DNA of 55,211 nucleotides from Candidatus Eiseniibacteriota bacterium. Lineage in GTDB: Bacteria; Eisenbacteria; RBG-16-71-46. The notes beneath the pieces were generated by a model, which was given only the letters and a program-made list of their open reading frames with translations, searched no databases and was not told the DNA's origin. Positions 10,907 through 21,678 of the stretch are shown in pieces. The stretch is from NCBI GenBank assembly GCA_044222065.1, contig JBGAOA010000023.1, positions 1 to 55,211 of the forward strand, read 5' to 3'. The position numbers and the translations under genes are program-made. The number at the start of each line of letters is the position of its first letter. The first letter of the stretch is position 1.

Positions 10907-10920
10907 GGCGACGAGGTCAG

Positions 10921-11043
10921 GCTCCGTTTGCAAAGCCGAATGCAAGGCGGCGAGGGAGTGAGGAACGAGGCGTATCCGAGGGATACTCCGCAGTGACGAA
11001 CGACCGAGCTAACGCAGCAGTCGGATTTTCAAACGGAGGCTAG
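10921..11043. repeat. Structured intergenic repeat, copy A (MITE/ncRNA-like)
   Basis: Outer stem 10922-10943/11017-11038 (19 of 22 paired); core TGCAAGGCGGCGAG...CTCCGCAGTGACGAACGACCGAGC shared with 20007-20146; ends in CTAG. Confidence 0.8.
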
Positions 11044-15006: not shown

Positions 15007-18000
15007 TCACCGCACGCGCACGATGCGCTTCGTCACCGACTCGCCGCGCGACAGCAGGCGCGCGAAGTACACGCCCGGCGACGCTTCGCGGCCGCCCGCC
15101 TCGCGGCCGTTCCAGCGCGCGGCGTGCACGCCGGCCCCGAAGCGCCCGTCCGCGAGCCGCGCGATCTCGCGGCCCGCGACGTCGTGGATCGTGAGCCGCG
15201 CGTCGGCCGCGAGCGGGAGTGCGAAGTCGAGCACGACGGCGCCGGACGACGGATTGGGGGAGGGATTCGCGAGCGCGAGGCTGCTCGCGACGAGTCCGTC
15301 GCCGACGCCGTTCACTTCGTGACGCATGCGGAAGTCCATCACCGCGCGCCCGCCGAGCACGGGCGTGAACCACGGCGTCGTCGGGAAGAACGGCGAGTTC
15401 GACTCGACGCGGCCGCGCACGGCGTAGCGCGCGCCCGGCGTGTAGCCGCCCGTCGGGCCGCCGAGCATCGGCGTCGAGCCCGGGCCCCACGCCGTGACGC
15501 TGCCGAGCATGCCGGCCGCGTTCACGCCGCCGCCGATCGCGTTCACCGCGACGTTCAGGAAGATCTTGTTCGGCCCGGCCGCGCTCCGCCCGACGTTTCC
15601 GAGCCAGAAGTAGTCCGCCTCGCCCGAGAGTCCGAGCGGCGCGATCGGCGTCGTGCCGTCGGTCAAGCGGATCAGGAAGCGGCGGTCGAGTCCGTTGAAG
15701 CCGTTCTCGACGTTGCCGAGGAACAGCTGCGCGAGCCCGCCGTCGAACGCGTTGTACGCCGGCGCGCCCACGATCACGTCGCCGAAGCCGTCGCCGTTCA
15801 CGTCGCCCGCGCCCGCCGTGCTGAAGCCGAACCAGTCGCCGCCGTTCGCGCCGTCGCGCGACCAGAACGGCGTCGTCGAGCCGAAGCCGGCGTACACGCG
15901 CGCGCCGCCCTGATCGGAGGCGCCCATCAGGTACGAGCCGACGACGATGTCGCTCGCGCCATCGCCGTTCACGTCGCCCGCGCTGCCGACGGACCAGCCG
16001 AGCTGGTCCTCGGCCGCGGCACCCACGATGCTCCACGCCGCGAGGCCGACGAGGCCGCCAGCGCCGCCGAGGTACACGTTCGCGACGCCCGCGTGGAGCG
16101 GCGCGCTGGACGAGTAGTAGGGGCCGCCGACGATCAGGTCGGAGTAGCCGTCGCCGTTCACGTCACCGGCGCCCGCGAGGCCGTAGCCGAGGTACTGCTG
16201 CGAGCGCGCCGCGATCACGAGCGACGGCGTGAGCGCCACACCCGTGTCGGTGCCGTAGTAGACGAGCACGCGCCCGGCGTCGGTGATCGTGATGAACGGA
16301 GTCGTCTGGTTGTCGAAGAGCGGCGCCGCGATCGCGATGTCCGAGAACCCGTCGCCGTTCACGTCGCCGATCCCGGCGACGCGGTCGCCGAGGTGCTCGT
16401 CCGCCTGGGAACCCGTGAAGATGCGGTCGGGCGAGAGGTGCGGTCCCGTCGGTCCGCCGAGATAGAGGAACGCGCGGCCCGCGCCCGAGCCGCCCGTGGG
16501 ATCGAGCGGCGAGCCGACGAGCACGTCCGAGTAGCCGTCGCCGTTCACGTCGCCCGCGCCCGCGACGTACGAGCCGAACAGCGCGCCCGGCGCGCCGATC
16601 GCCGTCCAGATCGGCGTGTTCGAGAGCACTCCGGGCCCGCCCGCGAACACGCGCGCGGCGCCGCCCGAGGCGCCGTACGGTGCGCCGACGATCCAGTCTT
16701 CGTAGCCGTCGCCGTTCACGTCGCCCGCGCCCGCGACCGAGAAGCCGAACGCTGCGCTCCAGTCGTCGCCGGGCCGCGACCACGCGGCCGCGCCGAGTCC
16801 GCTCGCCGAGCCCAGGTAGAGCGTGGCGCGTCCGTCGTCGCCGAACACTTCGTCGCGGAACGGCGCGCCGTAGATCACGTCGCCGAAGCCGTCGCCGTTC
16901 ACGTCGCCCGCGGCCGCGACCGACCAGCCGATGTTCTCGGCGAACTGCGAACCGCTCGGTCCCCACGCCGACGTCGTCTGCGGCTTGTTCGCCGAACCGA
17001 AGTAGAGCAGCGCGCGGCCTTCTTCGGTGTTCCCGTTCGACCAGCCGGGGCAGCCGACGACGAGGTCGCCGAAGCCGTCGCCGTTCACGTCGCCCGCCGC
17101 GCCGACGCCGGTGCCGAAGTGCTCGTTCGCGGCGTTTCCATAGAAGGTCAGCTGAGTCGGGAACGGCGCCGTGCCGGAGCGTCCGAGCACCACCGTCACC
17201 CCGCCCTGATCGGTCGTGCTGGGGCCGTCGTAGTCCGGGGCGCCGACCGCCACGTCGGCATAGCCGTCGCCGTTCACGTCGCCCGCGGGCCCGAGGATCG
17301 CGCCGTTGTGCGCGAACGTGCTTCCGCCGTCGCAGAGCCACACCAGATTTCCGGTCGAAGGCCCGCTCGGACCGCCCCAGTAGGCCCACGCGCTGCCGAA
17401 CTCGAAGAAGCCGCTGCCGCCCATGTTCGGCGCGCCGACCGCGATGTCGGCGTAGCCGTCGCCGTTGAAGTCGCCGGCCGTCGAGACGCACGCGCCGAAG
17501 CGCGCGCCGGTCTGGAAGCCGTTGATGATCACGGGCGGGATCTGGAACGTGCCGCCGAGTCCGCCCGCCGAACCGAAGTACACGCACAGTCGGCCGATCG
17601 CGCCCGAGCCGCCGTTGTAGTTCGGCGCGCCCACGACGACGTCGGCGTAGCCGTCGCCGTTCACGTCGCCCGCGCCGTGGACCGAGAAGCCGAACTGCGC
17701 GCCGACGCCGCAGAAGAACCCGCAGTAGAGCGCGCTGTTCCCCGCGGTGAGGCCGCCCGCGGCGCCGTAGTAGAGGCCGAACGTGCCGGACGAGGTGCCC
17801 GTGCAGGTCGCGGTCGGATCGCCCACGACGATGTCGTCGAAACCGTCGCCGTTCACGTCGCCCGCGGGCCCGAACGAGTAACCGAGCCCGCTCCCGGTGC
17901 CGGTGTTGAGCGTGAACGGCGTCGCGCCGGGTCCGCCCGGCCCGCCGTAGTAGACGCTCACCTGGCCGCCCGAGGCGAACAGGCTGCCCCAGCCGACGAT

Positions 18001-18375
18001 GAAGTCGTCGTAGCCGTCGTGGTTCACGTCGCCCGCGGGTGCCGCGTGCGGCTCCTGCGTCCAGCCGGTGCGCGTCCAGCCGGGCGTGAGCGCGGGGCCG
18101 GTCGCGGTGCCGTAGTAGAGGTCCGCGGTGCCGGTGCCCGAGGTCGAGCCCGAACGGGTGACGAGGAAGTCGGAGTAGCCGTCGCCGTTCACGTCGCCGG
18201 CCGTGACCGTCGAGGCGCCGTAGCGGCGGAAGTTCACGTTGCCCTCGACCGTCCAGCCCGAGAGCGTGAGGCCGTTCGTCTCGTTCGGAACGTTGGCGGC
18301 GCGGGCGGCGAGGGGGCTGGTCAGGGCGAACAGGGCGCACAGGAGCGCCGATCGGAACGACGGACGGGGATGCAT
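15007..18375 (-). CDS. Secreted FG-GAP (integrin-alpha-like) repeat protein with C-terminal FlgD-Ig/T9SS-A-like domain
   Basis: Signal peptide; 14 GD[VF]N[GH]DG repeats; C-terminus NPSPNP...LTIHDVAGREIARL...WNG...GVYFARL...RIVRVR. Confidence 0.9.
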   Translation of the reverse strand: MHPRPSFRSALLCALFALTSPLAARAANVPNETNGLTLSGWTVEGNVNFRRYGASTVTAGDVNGDGYSDFLVTRSGSTSGTGTADLYYGTATGPALTPGWTRTGWTQEPHAAPAGDVNHDGYDDFIVGWGSLFASGGQVSVYYGGPGGPGATPFTLNTGTGSGLGYSFGPAGDVNGDGFDDIVVGDPTATCTGTSSGTFGLYYGAAGGLTAGNSALYCGFFCGVGAQFGFSVHGAGDVNGDGYADVVVGAPNYNGGSGAIGRLCVYFGSAGGLGGTFQIPPVIINGFQTGARFGACVSTAGDFNGDGYADIAVGAPNMGGSGFFEFGSAWAYWGGPSGPSTGNLVWLCDGGSTFAHNGAILGPAGDVNGDGYADVAVGAPDYDGPSTTDQGGVTVVLGRSGTAPFPTQLTFYGNAANEHFGTGVGAAGDVNGDGFGDLVVGCPGWSNGNTEEGRALLYFGSANKPQTTSAWGPSGSQFAENIGWSVAAAGDVNGDGFGDVIYGAPFRDEVFGDDGRATLYLGSASGLGAAAWSRPGDDWSAAFGFSVAGAGDVNGDGYEDWIVGAPYGASGGAARVFAGGPGVLSNTPIWTAIGAPGALFGSYVAGAGDVNGDGYSDVLVGSPLDPTGGSGAGRAFLYLGGPTGPHLSPDRIFTGSQADEHLGDRVAGIGDVNGDGFSDIAIAAPLFDNQTTPFITITDAGRVLVYYGTDTGVALTPSLVIAARSQQYLGYGLAGAGDVNGDGYSDLIVGGPYYSSSAPLHAGVANVYLGGAGGLVGLAAWSIVGAAAEDQLGWSVGSAGDVNGDGASDIVVGSYLMGASDQGGARVYAGFGSTTPFWSRDGANGGDWFGFSTAGAGDVNGDGFGDVIVGAPAYNAFDGGLAQLFLGNVENGFNGLDRRFLIRLTDGTTPIAPLGLSGEADYFWLGNVGRSAAGPNKIFLNVAVNAIGGGVNAAGMLGSVTAWGPGSTPMLGGPTGGYTPGARYAVRGRVESNSPFFPTTPWFTPVLGGRAVMDFRMRHEVNGVGDGLVASSLALANPSPNPSSGAVVLDFALPLAADARLTIHDVAGREIARLADGRFGAGVHAARWNGREAGGREASPGVYFARLLSRGESVTKRIVRVR

Positions 18376-18516: not shown

Positions 18517-19893
18517 CTACTTTCCGGCGAGGCCGGCGAGCCGCTTCTTGAAGCCGTCGATCCGCCCCTGCGAGCGCTGGCCCTCGGGCAGCGCCTCGGC
18601 GAAGGCGATCGCGTCCTCGACCGTCTTGCGGGCGTTTTCGAAGTCGCCCTTCGCTTCGAACACTTCGGAGCGCAGCTGGTAGAAGTTCAGCTTGCGGGGC
18701 CCGTAGGCCTTCGCCATCGCGCGGTCCGAGGCGGCGAGCGCGTCGTCCCAGCGCTTCATCGCCTTGTACGCCGCGGCGAGACGCGCGGGCGGGTTGTAGT
18801 CGTCGGGCATCGCCCGCTCCGACGCCTGCAGCATCGGCACCGCCTTCTCGGGCGTGCCGAGCTCGAGGTAGGCCGAGAGCCGGTGCGAATCGAACACCGC
18901 GCGCGCGTCGGGCGTCTTCGCCTTCGCGGCTTCGGCGTCGAGGAATCGCGACCAGCGCTCGAGCGCGGCGTGCGCGCCGGCCTCGTCGCCCGCGTCCTGC
19001 CGGGCGCTCGCGAGGTCGGCGAGCAGGCTCGAGCGGTCGTCGCCCTCGACCACGATCGCGGGGTCGTCGGCGATCTCGCGGCACGCCGCTTCGAACTCGG
19101 CGACCCACGCGGCCCGCTGCGGATGCGACTTGTCGAGCGCGAGCGCGCCGTCGAGTCCGCTCACGGCGACGGTGACCGCGCTCGCGCGCTTGCGCACGCG
19201 CGGCAGCGCTTCGCGCGCCAGCGTCACCACGCCTTCGTTGTCGTCCGCCATGGACATCGAGAACAGCGCGGCCTCGACGACGCGCGGGTATTCGCGCCAG
19301 TCCGCGGGCGCCGCCGCGAGCGCTTCGCGGTACGCGGCCGCGGCGCCGGCATGGTCACCCCGGCCGTAGAGCGCGTCGGCGCGCGCGAGCGCGGCGTCGA
19401 GCGGCGAACCCGAGGCGGGCGCGTGGCGCCGGTCCCACGCCGCGCGCTGCTCGTCGAAGAACGCGTCGAAGCGCGCGGCGCTCGCGCCGCCGACCCAGCG
19501 CACGATCACCGTCTCGCTGTCGGGGTCCACGAGGAAGTACGACGGCAGCGCCGGAATGGGGAACTTGCGGCGCACGGGCGCGTTCTTCGCGAGTTCCGAG
19601 TTGATGGCCAGCCAGACGAACCGTCCGGCGTGCCGCTCGAGGACCTTGTCGGTGAACACGTAGGCCCTCATCGAGCGGCACGTGTGTCACCAGGGCGCCC
19701 AGGCTTCGATGAAGAGCGGCACCTTGCGCGCCTTCGCCTCGGCCACGGCGCGCGTGTAGTCGTCCTCGATGAACGGCAGCACCATCGGCTTCGCGGGCGC
19801 GGCCTTTGACACGGCCGCCTTCGCGGGCGCCGCGGCGTGGGCCGCGGGCGCGGCGAGCGCGGCGAGGACGACGAGGAGGGCGATCGATCGCAT
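18517..19893 (-). CDS. Exported thioredoxin-fold (UxxC) + TPR protein, putative selenoprotein (in-frame UGA at 19687-19689)
   Basis: ORFs 19687..19902 and 18517..19671 share a frame, separated by one TGA: LFIEAWAPW-TGA-HTCRSMRAYVF; later 'FPIPALPSYFLVDP' cis-Pro region and TPR-like helices. Confidence 0.85.
19629..19682 (-). promoter_or_regulatory. Putative bacterial SECIS hairpin
   Basis: Starts 4 nt after the UGA: CGUGCCGCUCGA/UCGAGCGGCACG 12-bp perfect stem, then GGGCCU/AGGUCC and a small apical loop. Confidence 0.65.
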
Positions 19894-20006
19894 GGGCGGC
19901 ACTCTAGCAGTGGCCCCGCGGGCGGACCACCGCGGGGCCGCCGCGAAACGACGAACGCCCCGTCCGGGCGGACGAGGCGCCGTTCAGGAAGGCGTCGCCC
20001 CTCGGG

Positions 20007-20146
20007 TCCGGATGAAGACCCGAGTGCAAGGCGGCGAGCGAGTGAGGAACGAGGTGTGTCCCCCGGGACACTCCGCAGTGACGAACGACCGAGCCGGGCA
20101 CCCGCCGAAGGCGGGTCCCGCAATCGGGTCTTCAGCCGGAGCCTAG
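20007..20146. repeat. Structured intergenic repeat, copy B
   Basis: Outer stem 20007-20027/20120-20140 (19 of 21 paired); core nearly identical to copy A; extra CCCGCC-GAA-GGCGGG hairpin; terminal CTAG includes the TAG stop of the GAF gene. Confidence 0.8.
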
Positions 20147-21510
20147 ACCCACGCCGCGGCGCGGCGCGCGGCCTCGTGTTGTCCGAGCGTCATCGCCACG
20201 AGCGAGCCGGCGATGAGCGCGCGGTCGAGATCGTGCTCGTCGAACGACTCGCCGTCGCGCTTGTTGCTCAGGTTCATCACGCCGAAGAGCCGGTTGTTGT
20301 GCACGAGCGGGACGCAGATGAACGAGTCCGAGTTGTAGGCGTCCTGCCCGGTGTGCGGGTTCGGCTGCTCCTGCTCGCGCATGCGCACGAACAGCGGCTT
20401 GCGGTTGTGCGCCACCCAGCCCGCGATGCCCTGCCCGATGCGCACGCGCACCTGCCGCGCGATCTCGGGCGACACGCCGACACACGCCGCCATGTGCAGC
20501 GCCTCGCCGGTCGCATCGAGCGTCATCAGGCTGCAGCGCTCGACGCCGAAGTGCTGCGAGAACCACGCGACCATCGTGCGCGCGAACTCGTCGCGGTCGT
20601 GCTCCTGCGACAGCACCTGGCAGACCTCGCGCAGGAATCCCATCGTGTGGTTCAGCGCGCCGAGGCGGTTCTGCGCGTGGTCGAGCTGCGCGTACGCCTC
20701 GGTGAGGTGTTCGGTCGCGAGCGCCGACTGCGCCTCGAGCGCGCCGAGCTCGCCCTTCACGCGGTCGAGCTCGAGCCGGTACTGGCTCGAGTTCTTGTCG
20801 AGCGACTCGATCTCGAGCCCGAGCGCCTCGACGCGCCGCGCCTTGTCGGCGTTGTCGCGCTCGAGTTCGGCCGCGCGCTCGGTCATGACCTGCATCTGCT
20901 GCTGGAAGCGCCTCGCGGCTTCGAGCGCGTCACGCTCGCGGCCGGCCTCGGTCGTCTCGGGGCGCGGCGCGCGGTGCAGGTGCTGCGAGATCGCGAGCGT
21001 CGCCGTGGCCTTGAGCGGCAGCAGCGAGGCGATCTCCTTGCTGCCGAACGCGCCCTTCTTCGAACTCGCGATCATGAGCAGGCCGAGGATGTCGTCCTGG
21101 TCCGCGAGCGGCAGGCACACGGCCGACTGCCAGTCGCGCATCGGCGACACGGGCCCCATCGCGTGCGCTTCGGGCAGGCTCAATTCGTAGTAGGGCGACG
21201 ACTGGAAGAGCTGCGTGAGCCATTTGCCCCGGTCGCCGTGATTGAAGAATGCACTGGGGTGGAAGAACTTTCGCACGAGTCGCGCGGGGAGCCGCTCGAC
21301 CTGGATCGAGAGGTCGCGGCGCTGGAGCCGGTTCGCGTCCCGCTGGTAGACGTTCACGATCGCGTCGCGGCTCACTTCGTAGAACGCCACCGAAGCCCGC
21401 CAGTCCGAGCGAACCGATTGCAGGTAACCGAGAAACTCGAACAGCACCGCTTCGGTGTTCCGCGAAGTCGCGAGCCGCTCCGAGATGTCGCGCAAGTCGA
21501 ATTTGGACAC
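20143..21510 (-). CDS. GAF-domain protein (GAF - coiled coil - GAF), no output domain
   Basis: 'SAVCLPLADQDDILGLLMIAS' and 'GQGIAGWVAHNRKPL...SFICVPLVHNNRLFGVMNLSNK...FDEHD' GAF signatures around a heptad-rich linker; GTG start after GAGGGG. Confidence 0.85.
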   Translation of the reverse strand: MSKFDLRDISERLATSRNTEAVLFEFLGYLQSVRSDWRASVAFYEVSRDAIVNVYQRDANRLQRRDLSIQVERLPARLVRKFFHPSAFFNHGDRGKWLTQLFQSSPYYELSLPEAHAMGPVSPMRDWQSAVCLPLADQDDILGLLMIASSKKGAFGSKEIASLLPLKATATLAISQHLHRAPRPETTEAGRERDALEAARRFQQQMQVMTERAAELERDNADKARRVEALGLEIESLDKNSSQYRLELDRVKGELGALEAQSALATEHLTEAYAQLDHAQNRLGALNHTMGFLREVCQVLSQEHDRDEFARTMVAWFSQHFGVERCSLMTLDATGEALHMAACVGVSPEIARQVRVRIGQGIAGWVAHNRKPLFVRMREQEQPNPHTGQDAYNSDSFICVPLVHNNRLFGVMNLSNKRDGESFDEHDLDRALIAGSLVAMTLGQHEAARRAAAWV

Positions 21511-21558
21511 GAGCCGATCCCCCTCGAGAAGTCGTGCGCAGTGTGGGCACGAAGCGAA

Positions 21559-21575
21559 GGCAACGGCTGTGCCCA
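21559..21575 (-). promoter_or_regulatory. Putative sigma54 promoter
   Basis: Minus strand TGGGCAC-AGCCG-TTGCC (GG-N10-GC) about 50 nt upstream of the GAF gene. Confidence 0.6.
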
Positions 21576-21678
21576 TTGCCCCATTGCGACGTGCACGGCC
21601 CGACGAGCGCGCGGCGGACGCGCTTGCCGCTGCGGCGCCGAGCGGTGGAGACTGCGCCGCGCGAAGGGAGGTGACGCG

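Follow-up and report, generated by a model that had tools for sequence, protein, structure and literature searches.

The gene described here occupies positions 18517..19893 on the minus strand of the window, by which we mean the whole stretch of 55,211 nucleotides that was analyzed; the original prediction had described the same gene and left its strand unstated. Read through one in-frame TGA it encodes 458 amino acids, an extent supported by full-length homologues. Translation of 19893..18517 contains a single internal TGA, codon 69 (19687..19689, minus strand), which falls, as had been claimed, on the first Cys position of a thioredoxin (Trx) motif, in the context EAWAPW-U-HTC-RSM. With this codon read as the predicted selenocysteine (Sec), a UxxC redox motif results (U69-H-T-C72; 19678..19689, minus strand), whose C72 is invariant in 108 of 108 aligned homologues. 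The gene had been expected to be annotated as two fragments; instead, the protein set holds one 384-aa product (P0003) that starts at Met75 (ATG, 19669..19671, minus strand), a residue conserved among homologues, those with Cys included.

We then followed the codon through the sequencing data. Contigs of three DNA runs (X1, X2, and X14, with X1 possibly the source) bridge the TGA with at least 31 nt on each side and carry no other letter there, so that the TGA was confirmed and neither TGC nor TGT was seen. The X14 contig has 7 other letters over 1238 nt with the TGA unchanged, X7 contigs cover the TGA near contig ends only, and the same codon is found in another assembly (L052), whose protein is 99% identical. 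Sequencing error does not account for the TGA. Contigs from RNA runs also match parts of the gene, one of them (from X17) spanning the TGA without difference; because contigs cannot show transcription, these were not counted as support.

The suggestion that homologues would carry TGA or Cys at this site was borne out. Across 92 distinct genome loci (74 search loci and 20 further stretches, minus 2 duplicates), close homologues do carry TGA and Cys is the only alternative: codon 69 is TGA in 42, TGC in 40, and TGT in 10, the Cys share among L052-L095 being inflated by a search pattern that included the Cys motif. When 61 related genomes were searched, most members of the family and order gave full-length matches, usually containing one TGA, and among these relatives the codon was TGA in 41 of 49 loci, the gene itself and three paralogues counted. 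The family is also present in a class of Acidobacteriota, where 44 of 101 genomes matched at E <= 1e-60; the codon is TGA in 25 of the 27 loci analyzed (30 returned, minus two duplicates and one unpublished genome) and TGA or TGY in all 27. An exact TGA-containing pattern is estimated to match ~810 metagenome stretches. Record titles place the homologues in Candidatus Eisenbacteria and Acidobacteriota (Thermoanaerobaculia), together with more distant Myxococcota homologues that carry Cys. Among the best 120 protein-set matches, 31 start at the Met that follows the Sec site, 89 are Cys forms of full length, and none has U at the site; the ESM Atlas holds two clusters of the truncated form. Three relatives additionally encode members of a paralogous Trx-tetratricopeptide repeat (TPR) clade (L118, L119, and L120; ~35% identity) with the motif W-U-Y-S-C.

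The genome has selB, a selD with its own in-frame TGA (Sec), and, directly behind selD, a tRNA-Sec(UCA) that is its only UCA-anticodon tRNA. Searches with TIGR00474 and PF03841 gave no selA match in this genome, whose assembly is 94% complete. Each of 36 family relatives has selA, which lies directly upstream of smc in all 8 relatives whose neighborhoods were checked; here, the smc sequence on contig C72 begins at base 3, already inside the gene. The simplest reading of this synteny, short of proof, is that the missing selA marks an assembly gap. Of the machinery that the original prediction had named, selB, selC, and selD were thus found and selA was not, its syntenic position lying in that gap. 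The Sec genes are scattered in this lineage, with selA before smc-ftsY, selD-selC (contig C79) before lepA, and selB on another contig.

Alternation of TGA with Cys, the presence of selB, selD, and tRNA-Sec, and a codon unchanged across runs together uphold the proposed hidden selenoprotein: judged from sequence, the gene is intact and its in-frame UGA is very likely decoded as Sec. That the TGA is instead a real stop, a sequencing error (leaving a pseudogene or a TPR-only protein from Met75), or a UGA read as Trp or Cys is scarcely credible, for although selA is absent from the assembly and a 384-aa ORF is available from Met75, well over 150 distinct loci in two or more phyla carry TGA at this codon, with Cys as the sole alternative, independent runs agree on it, Met75 is conserved in Cys homologues too, TGA terminates 800 of 1081 long ORFs and is thus the main stop of a standard code, and the only UCA tRNA is of the Sec type and exists beside tRNA-Trp(CCA) and tRNA-Cys(GCA). 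On the strength of runs, TGA/Cys conservation, tRNAs, and stop usage, we rejected sequencing error, pseudogene, and UGA as Trp or Cys.

The RNA downstream of the TGA folds into two consecutive hairpins. The first, H1, extends from +5 to +58 after the UGA (19629..19682, minus strand) and contains the feature reported earlier, a perfect 12-bp stem with an upper stem that begins 4 nt past the TGA (arms 19682..19671 and 19640..19629). The 60-nt fold after the TGA is more stable than dinucleotide shuffles (z = -5.1, with 0 of 200 as stable); perfect 12-bp stems are uncommon in the 55-kb window without being unique (16 overlapping 12-mers with a partner within 60 nt). Directly behind H1, the 80-nt fold contains a second hairpin, H2, from +58 to +76 (19611..19629, minus strand). 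In this gene it has an 8-bp stem, an R-G-U-H-Y apex reading GUU, and an energy of -11.8 kcal/mol. Its apex (19618..19622, minus strand) lies 65 nt from the UGA.

The published bSECIS model describes a loop of 3-9 nt, a stem of 4-16 bp, an MFE <= -7.5, a G within the first two loop positions (N1-G-[G|U]-N-N2), and 16-37 nt from the UGA to the apical loop, and some bSECIS elements fail these constraints (PMC13188914). In our own implementation of the model, the H2 apex fits N1-G-[G|U]-N-N2 and its loop, stem, G, and energy all lie within the published limits; its spacing of 65 nt lies outside them. The loops predicted for H1 lack the G that the model requires. The original prediction was therefore right that a hairpin follows the UGA; the one it singled out, H1, is Sec-linked but has no SelB-type G loop, and H2 is the likelier SelB element.

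Conservation of H2 tracks Sec closely. Its strict motif occurs in 42 of 42 TGA loci vs. 2 of 50 Cys loci, in 25 of 25 Acidobacteriota TGA loci, and in 110 of 113 metagenome TGA loci (113 usable of 120 fetched with a search pattern that did not include H2). A G-loop hairpin of <= -7.5 kcal/mol at 60-70 nt is present in 168 of 168 distinct TGA loci and in 6 of 52 Cys loci. Synonymous sites are fixed as well: metagenome TGA loci use GCC for the H2 Ala codon (113/113, vs. 27/46 Cys loci) and GTC for the Val codon (113/113, vs. 25/46), and the Gly codon in TGA loci is GGR (GGA or GGG), never GGC. This constraint consequently acts on RNA and not on protein. On a tree of 108 proteins, built by a quick method after 10 short, frameshifted, or duplicate rows were dropped and the Sec site and hairpin-coded residues were removed, Sec and Cys interchange at least 13 times; the presence of H2 accompanies Sec in 10.5 independent pairs, with 0 pairs showing the reverse (p ~0.001). 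A few Cys loci keep H2 (L058, L063, and L254), and we read these as putative recent reversions. The paralogous clade has an identical H2, three nucleotides closer to the UGA. The consensus recovered by RNAalifold contains H2 alone, and 5 of the 8 H2 pairs never vary; with so little true covariation, the case for H2 rests on its Sec-linked conservation and on the synonymous constraint. These patterns make H2 very probably the SelB-binding site, a bacterial SECIS candidate predicted from its form and conservation.

Other selenoprotein genes of the same genome served as controls. SECIS-like apices lie at +17 in SelD, +18 in SelW/Rdx, +19 in an AhpC/redoxin-FlgD gene, and +17 in a YHS-like gene, on stems that begin at +11/+12. 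The apex type of these four candidate genes is the same as that of H2, differing by one base in AhpC/redoxin-FlgD. With 65 nt against 17-19 nt, the H2 loop is more than three times farther from its UGA. Across genomes, selD has an apex at +17/+20 in 12 of 13 Sec forms vs. 0 of 4 Cys forms, a count of 17 readable loci reached with a pattern of our own that missed 13 of 30. Of 13 other pairings of a TGA with an H2-like hairpin that were examined in this genome, none resembled coding readthrough. Our genome-wide TGA screens are heuristic and may miss selenoproteins. They yielded a candidate exported selenoprotein (L321, G000:C29:11859-12896, plus strand) with a signal-like N-terminus, an AhpC/redoxin UxxC motif, a FlgD-Ig/T9SS-like tail at its C-terminus, and a SECIS-like apex at +19; a second candidate (L322, G000:C26:56908-57450, minus strand) with an F-T-U-E motif, a signal-like N-terminus, a weak YHS match, no NCBIfam family, and a SECIS-like apex at +17; and a SelT/SelW/SelH (Rdx) selenoprotein (L323, G000:C119:16643-16876, plus strand) with CxxU, above the TIGR02174 cut-off.

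Sec might be inserted with SelB bound to H1, or to a short hairpin within H1 at canonical distance, leaving H2 an accessory part in stability, pausing, or regulation. H1 is strong and Sec-linked and begins 4 nt past the UGA, and published exceptions to the bSECIS constraints exist (PMC13188914). Moreover, at a loose cut-off of -3 kcal/mol, weak G-loop hairpins at 16-37 nt are enriched with Sec (79 of 168 TGA loci vs. 12 of 52 Cys loci), although this gene has none. These weak alternatives in the canonical window count against a clean picture. However, a stable G-loop hairpin (<= -7.5 kcal/mol) is found at 16-37 nt in only 3 of 168 TGA loci, H1 varies freely in sequence where H2 is nearly invariant, and the H2 apex matches elements that stand at canonical distance in the same genome. 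We regard a SelB site in H1 as improbable.

Against synonymous recoding, H1 is unusually stable in three TGA sets (z = -2.5, -2.65, and -2.63; n = 38, 25, and 113) and not in 48 Cys loci (z = -0.07), and a downstream control region gave z of -0.3 to -0.5 in TGA and Cys sets alike. When the first 10 nt were blocked to mimic the ribosome, H1 still closed in 168 of 168 TGA loci vs. 20 of 52 Cys loci; blocking 12 nt leaves this gene with just the inner part of H1. The folded path from the UGA to the base of H2 then measures 13-16 steps in 141 of 168 TGA loci. The paralogous clade (L118-L120) differs in H1 sequence and in the encoded peptide and yet has a long H1. The energy threshold applied to H1 in the independent-pairs test was picked after seeing the data.

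Formal covariation gave a weaker result. Over 96 sequences, 87% of the cells of the two-hairpin structure are paired, and two-sided changes number 49 vs. 18.6 in shuffles, but the same structure slid by 2 columns performs equally (8 pairs and 55 two-sided cells, vs. 8 pairs and 49). H1 was not recovered as an RNAalifold consensus, its register drifting between sequences, and nothing in the window reached an Rfam gathering score, the upstream region giving just a chance match. The covariation that had been proposed as a check on this hairpin is therefore modest and equaled by the slid control; what holds is the Sec-linked fold. A hairpin conserved as a fold without fixed register fits the role of a spacer, and we consider H1 a probable one.

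These observations suggest how a SECIS could work from 65 nt. A ribosome with this codon in its A site would cover roughly 10 nt past it, and the rest of H1 (+11..+52) would stay paired, looping out ~40 nt. H2 would thus lie ~13-16 steps past the UGA, close to the position at which the other SECIS stems of this genome begin, and SelB-GTP-Sec-tRNA could bind the G-U apex of H2 and deliver Sec. It is likely, on this geometry, that H1 acts as a bridge that brings H2 near the ribosome. An engineered, more distant SECIS can reportedly function in E. coli (a 2005 report). Alternatively, H2 might recruit SelB from a distance with no bridge, while H1 slows the ribosome at the UGA or hinders release factor 2. 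The drifting register and weak formal covariation of H1 would suit this alternative, as would the expected melting of its base under the ribosome; yet the H1 structure is kept in all Sec loci, the clade of different sequence included, and the folded path stays within 13-16 steps in most of them. An arrangement without a bridge seems unlikely to us, if less so than a SelB site in H1. Our preferred reading overall, held with good confidence, is of an intact Sec gene for a predicted exported thioredoxin-TPR enzyme, with H2 as the likely SelB hairpin bridged by H1. Somewhat more guardedly, we propose a two-hairpin cassette in which a natural bacterial SECIS works from 65 nt, behind a spacer hairpin of flexible sequence, and serves an uncatalogued but widespread family of predicted exported Trx-TPR proteins in Eisenbacteria and Acidobacteriota.

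The protein itself comprises three parts. A predicted signal peptide (about residues 1-20; 19834..19893, minus strand) ends in A-H-A and is followed by an Ala/Pro/Lys linker. This N-terminus was signal-like in our own hydrophobicity check, and its counterpart is hydrophobic in 111 of 118 reconstructed homologues. Residues 36-157 (19423..19788, minus strand) form a thioredoxin-fold domain of Thioredoxin_7 or DsbD-gamma-like type, and residues 164-456 (18526..19404, minus strand) form a TPR-like superhelix of 16 predicted helices. Thioredoxin_7 (E 4e-10) and TPR_12 (E 7e-9) score above Pfam cut-offs, and PF00085 (22.0 vs. 23.5 bits) and PF13098 (22.9 vs. 27 bits) fall below; many homologues do carry PF00085 or PF13098 labels, and a database could file them there. 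An AlphaFold model from a 118-sequence alignment (pLDDT 93.8, pTM 0.89) shows the Trx domain and TPR superhelix behind a disordered N-terminus with low pLDDT at residues 1-17. W68, H70, C72, R73, S74, and M75 are at least 95% conserved, as are several charged TPR motifs; conserved motifs in the TPR part are D285-D286-x-S288, R331/D335/R338, P363-x-D-Y-N-P-x-x-R371, and G398-P-R400. The closest solved TPR pieces are the LGN/Pins TPR domains (Z ~18), and the matches listed by the fold searches included no solved structure with the whole Trx-plus-TPR arrangement. The length, domains, and signal-like N-terminus of the proposed 458-aa Sec oxidoreductase with a TPR scaffold thus hold, and its function is a prediction. 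A Cys pair that this protein lacks is present at residues equivalent to 222 and 249 in about 67 of 108 homologues and is probably a structural disulfide.

A working cycle can be drawn from these parts. The signal peptide would export the protein, and U69-x-x-C72 would cycle through a selenenylsulfide, with Sec as a fast nucleophile on disulfides. Envelope-protein clients held in the TPR groove could have their disulfides reduced or reshuffled, and the enzyme might be recharged by a DsbD-type membrane protein, since the genome encodes such a domain (DsbD_TM). With modest confidence, we therefore propose a DsbD-fed thiol-disulfide reductase or isomerase of the envelope. The same recoding may instead serve another task, that of an envelope chaperedoxin (a CnoX-like holdase that forms a protective mixed selenylsulfide) or of a reductase with one partner. 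The order of Trx and TPR is that of CnoX (PMC8129009), the JGI name of several homologues is "thioredoxin-like negative regulator of GroEL," and the strong conservation of charged TPR motifs hints at a specific ligand. Against these tasks speak an invariant resolving Cys (C72), a Trx domain whose best matches are DsbD-gamma-like, a weak structural resemblance to YbbN/CnoX (TM 0.19), and a predicted signal peptide that would keep the protein away from GroEL. Either of these other tasks is possible but doubtful. Gene neighborhoods give no pointer to the substrate, because they are not conserved, the largest neighbor cluster having 13 loci. Here, the flanking genes are a large FG-GAP repeat protein with a FlgD-Ig tail downstream (15007-18375, minus strand) and a GAF-domain protein upstream (20143-21576, minus strand), neither of which is a conserved neighbor.

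We compared the protein with known selenoproteins and related folds. Table 1 of a 2026 review lists 119 families, among them a Trx7/PDZ protein and several Trx-fold UxxC families, namely Trx (PF00085), the thiol:disulfide interchange protein (PF13098), a thiol-disulfide isomerase-like family (cd02966), SaoT, and a HUIPC-motif protein; none of its 119 rows is a TPR-fused family (PMC13188914). Like bacterial Trx-fold UxxC selenoproteins, the present protein has a Trx fold with Sec first in UxxC, Cys homologues, and a recoding that would depend on SelB. Unlike the listed UxxC families, it matches Thioredoxin_7 best and has a ~290-aa TPR superhelix and a predicted signal peptide. The Trx7/PDZ family NF041199 and TsoB (NF045694) likewise place a Thioredoxin_7 or DsbD-like domain in a multidomain selenoprotein, but our protein scores only 12.2 of 300 and 18.5 of 805 bits against them, and they have CxxU and UxxxxU motifs with a PDZ or rhodanese partner where this one has UxxC and TPR. 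NCBIfam has no family above cut-off for this protein or for 7 homologues.

Outside the selenoproteins, CnoX/YbbN also fuses an N-terminal Trx domain to a C-terminal TPR; the TPR of CnoX consists of two five-helix subdomains, and CnoX acts together with GroEL/ES (PMC8129009). The present protein differs in its 16 helices, predicted signal peptide, and Sec, and in a TM score of 0.19/0.30 to 3QOU. Its closest solved Trx domains are the DsbD gamma domain and a putative disulfide isomerase from Bacteroides, 2KUC (E 2e-17 and 6e-12; structure Z 14-15.6); unlike these, it is predicted to be a stand-alone exported protein, with TPR and with no membrane domain. As for the RNA, H2 resembles the canonical fdhF-type SECIS in loop size, stem, apex, energy, and location in the coding region 3' of the UGA, and departs from it in the distance of its apex (65 nt vs. 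16-37) and in the long conserved hairpin that intervenes. The words "TPR" and "tetratricopeptide" are absent from the main text of the BSepDB (PMC13326102) and deep-Sep (PMC12013277) papers. Among journals readable without subscription, our searches listed no paper that treats this family, a naturally distant SECIS in bacteria, selenocysteine in Eisenbacteria, or thioredoxin-TPR selenoproteins in Acidobacteria. The predicted exported Trx-TPR family is apparently uncatalogued, and BSepDB entries may file some members under a generic thioredoxin name.

Most selenoproteins have a Trx fold. The protein alone is for that reason a modest addition, and the RNA signal matters more. What the protein adds to bacterial selenoproteins is a predicted exported Trx-TPR architecture, in a family found commonly in two lineages with few cultured members and stored in databases as a truncated "TPR repeat protein." In BSepDB, 87.4% of bacterial selenoprotein entries have a canonical SECIS, and the remainder is an open question (PMC13326102). 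The two-hairpin signal offers a concrete, conserved, and easily tested way past the 16-37 nt rule, with controls in the same genome. If it works as proposed, the residues right after Sec would be freed from SECIS constraints, and the cassette would be invisible to distance-limited SECIS searches, which should then allow folded-out spacers. Recombinant selenoprotein design could likewise shift the SECIS off active-site codons.

A dispersed intergenic repeat was also observed in the window (20000-20148 and 10920-11009). One copy lies just upstream of the gene and not upstream of its homologues. The repeat has no Rfam match; it measures ~90-150 bp, with inverted ends and a long rod fold, and is MITE- or REP-like. 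This genome has ~25-30 copies of it, and 10 of 24 family relatives gave weak matches.
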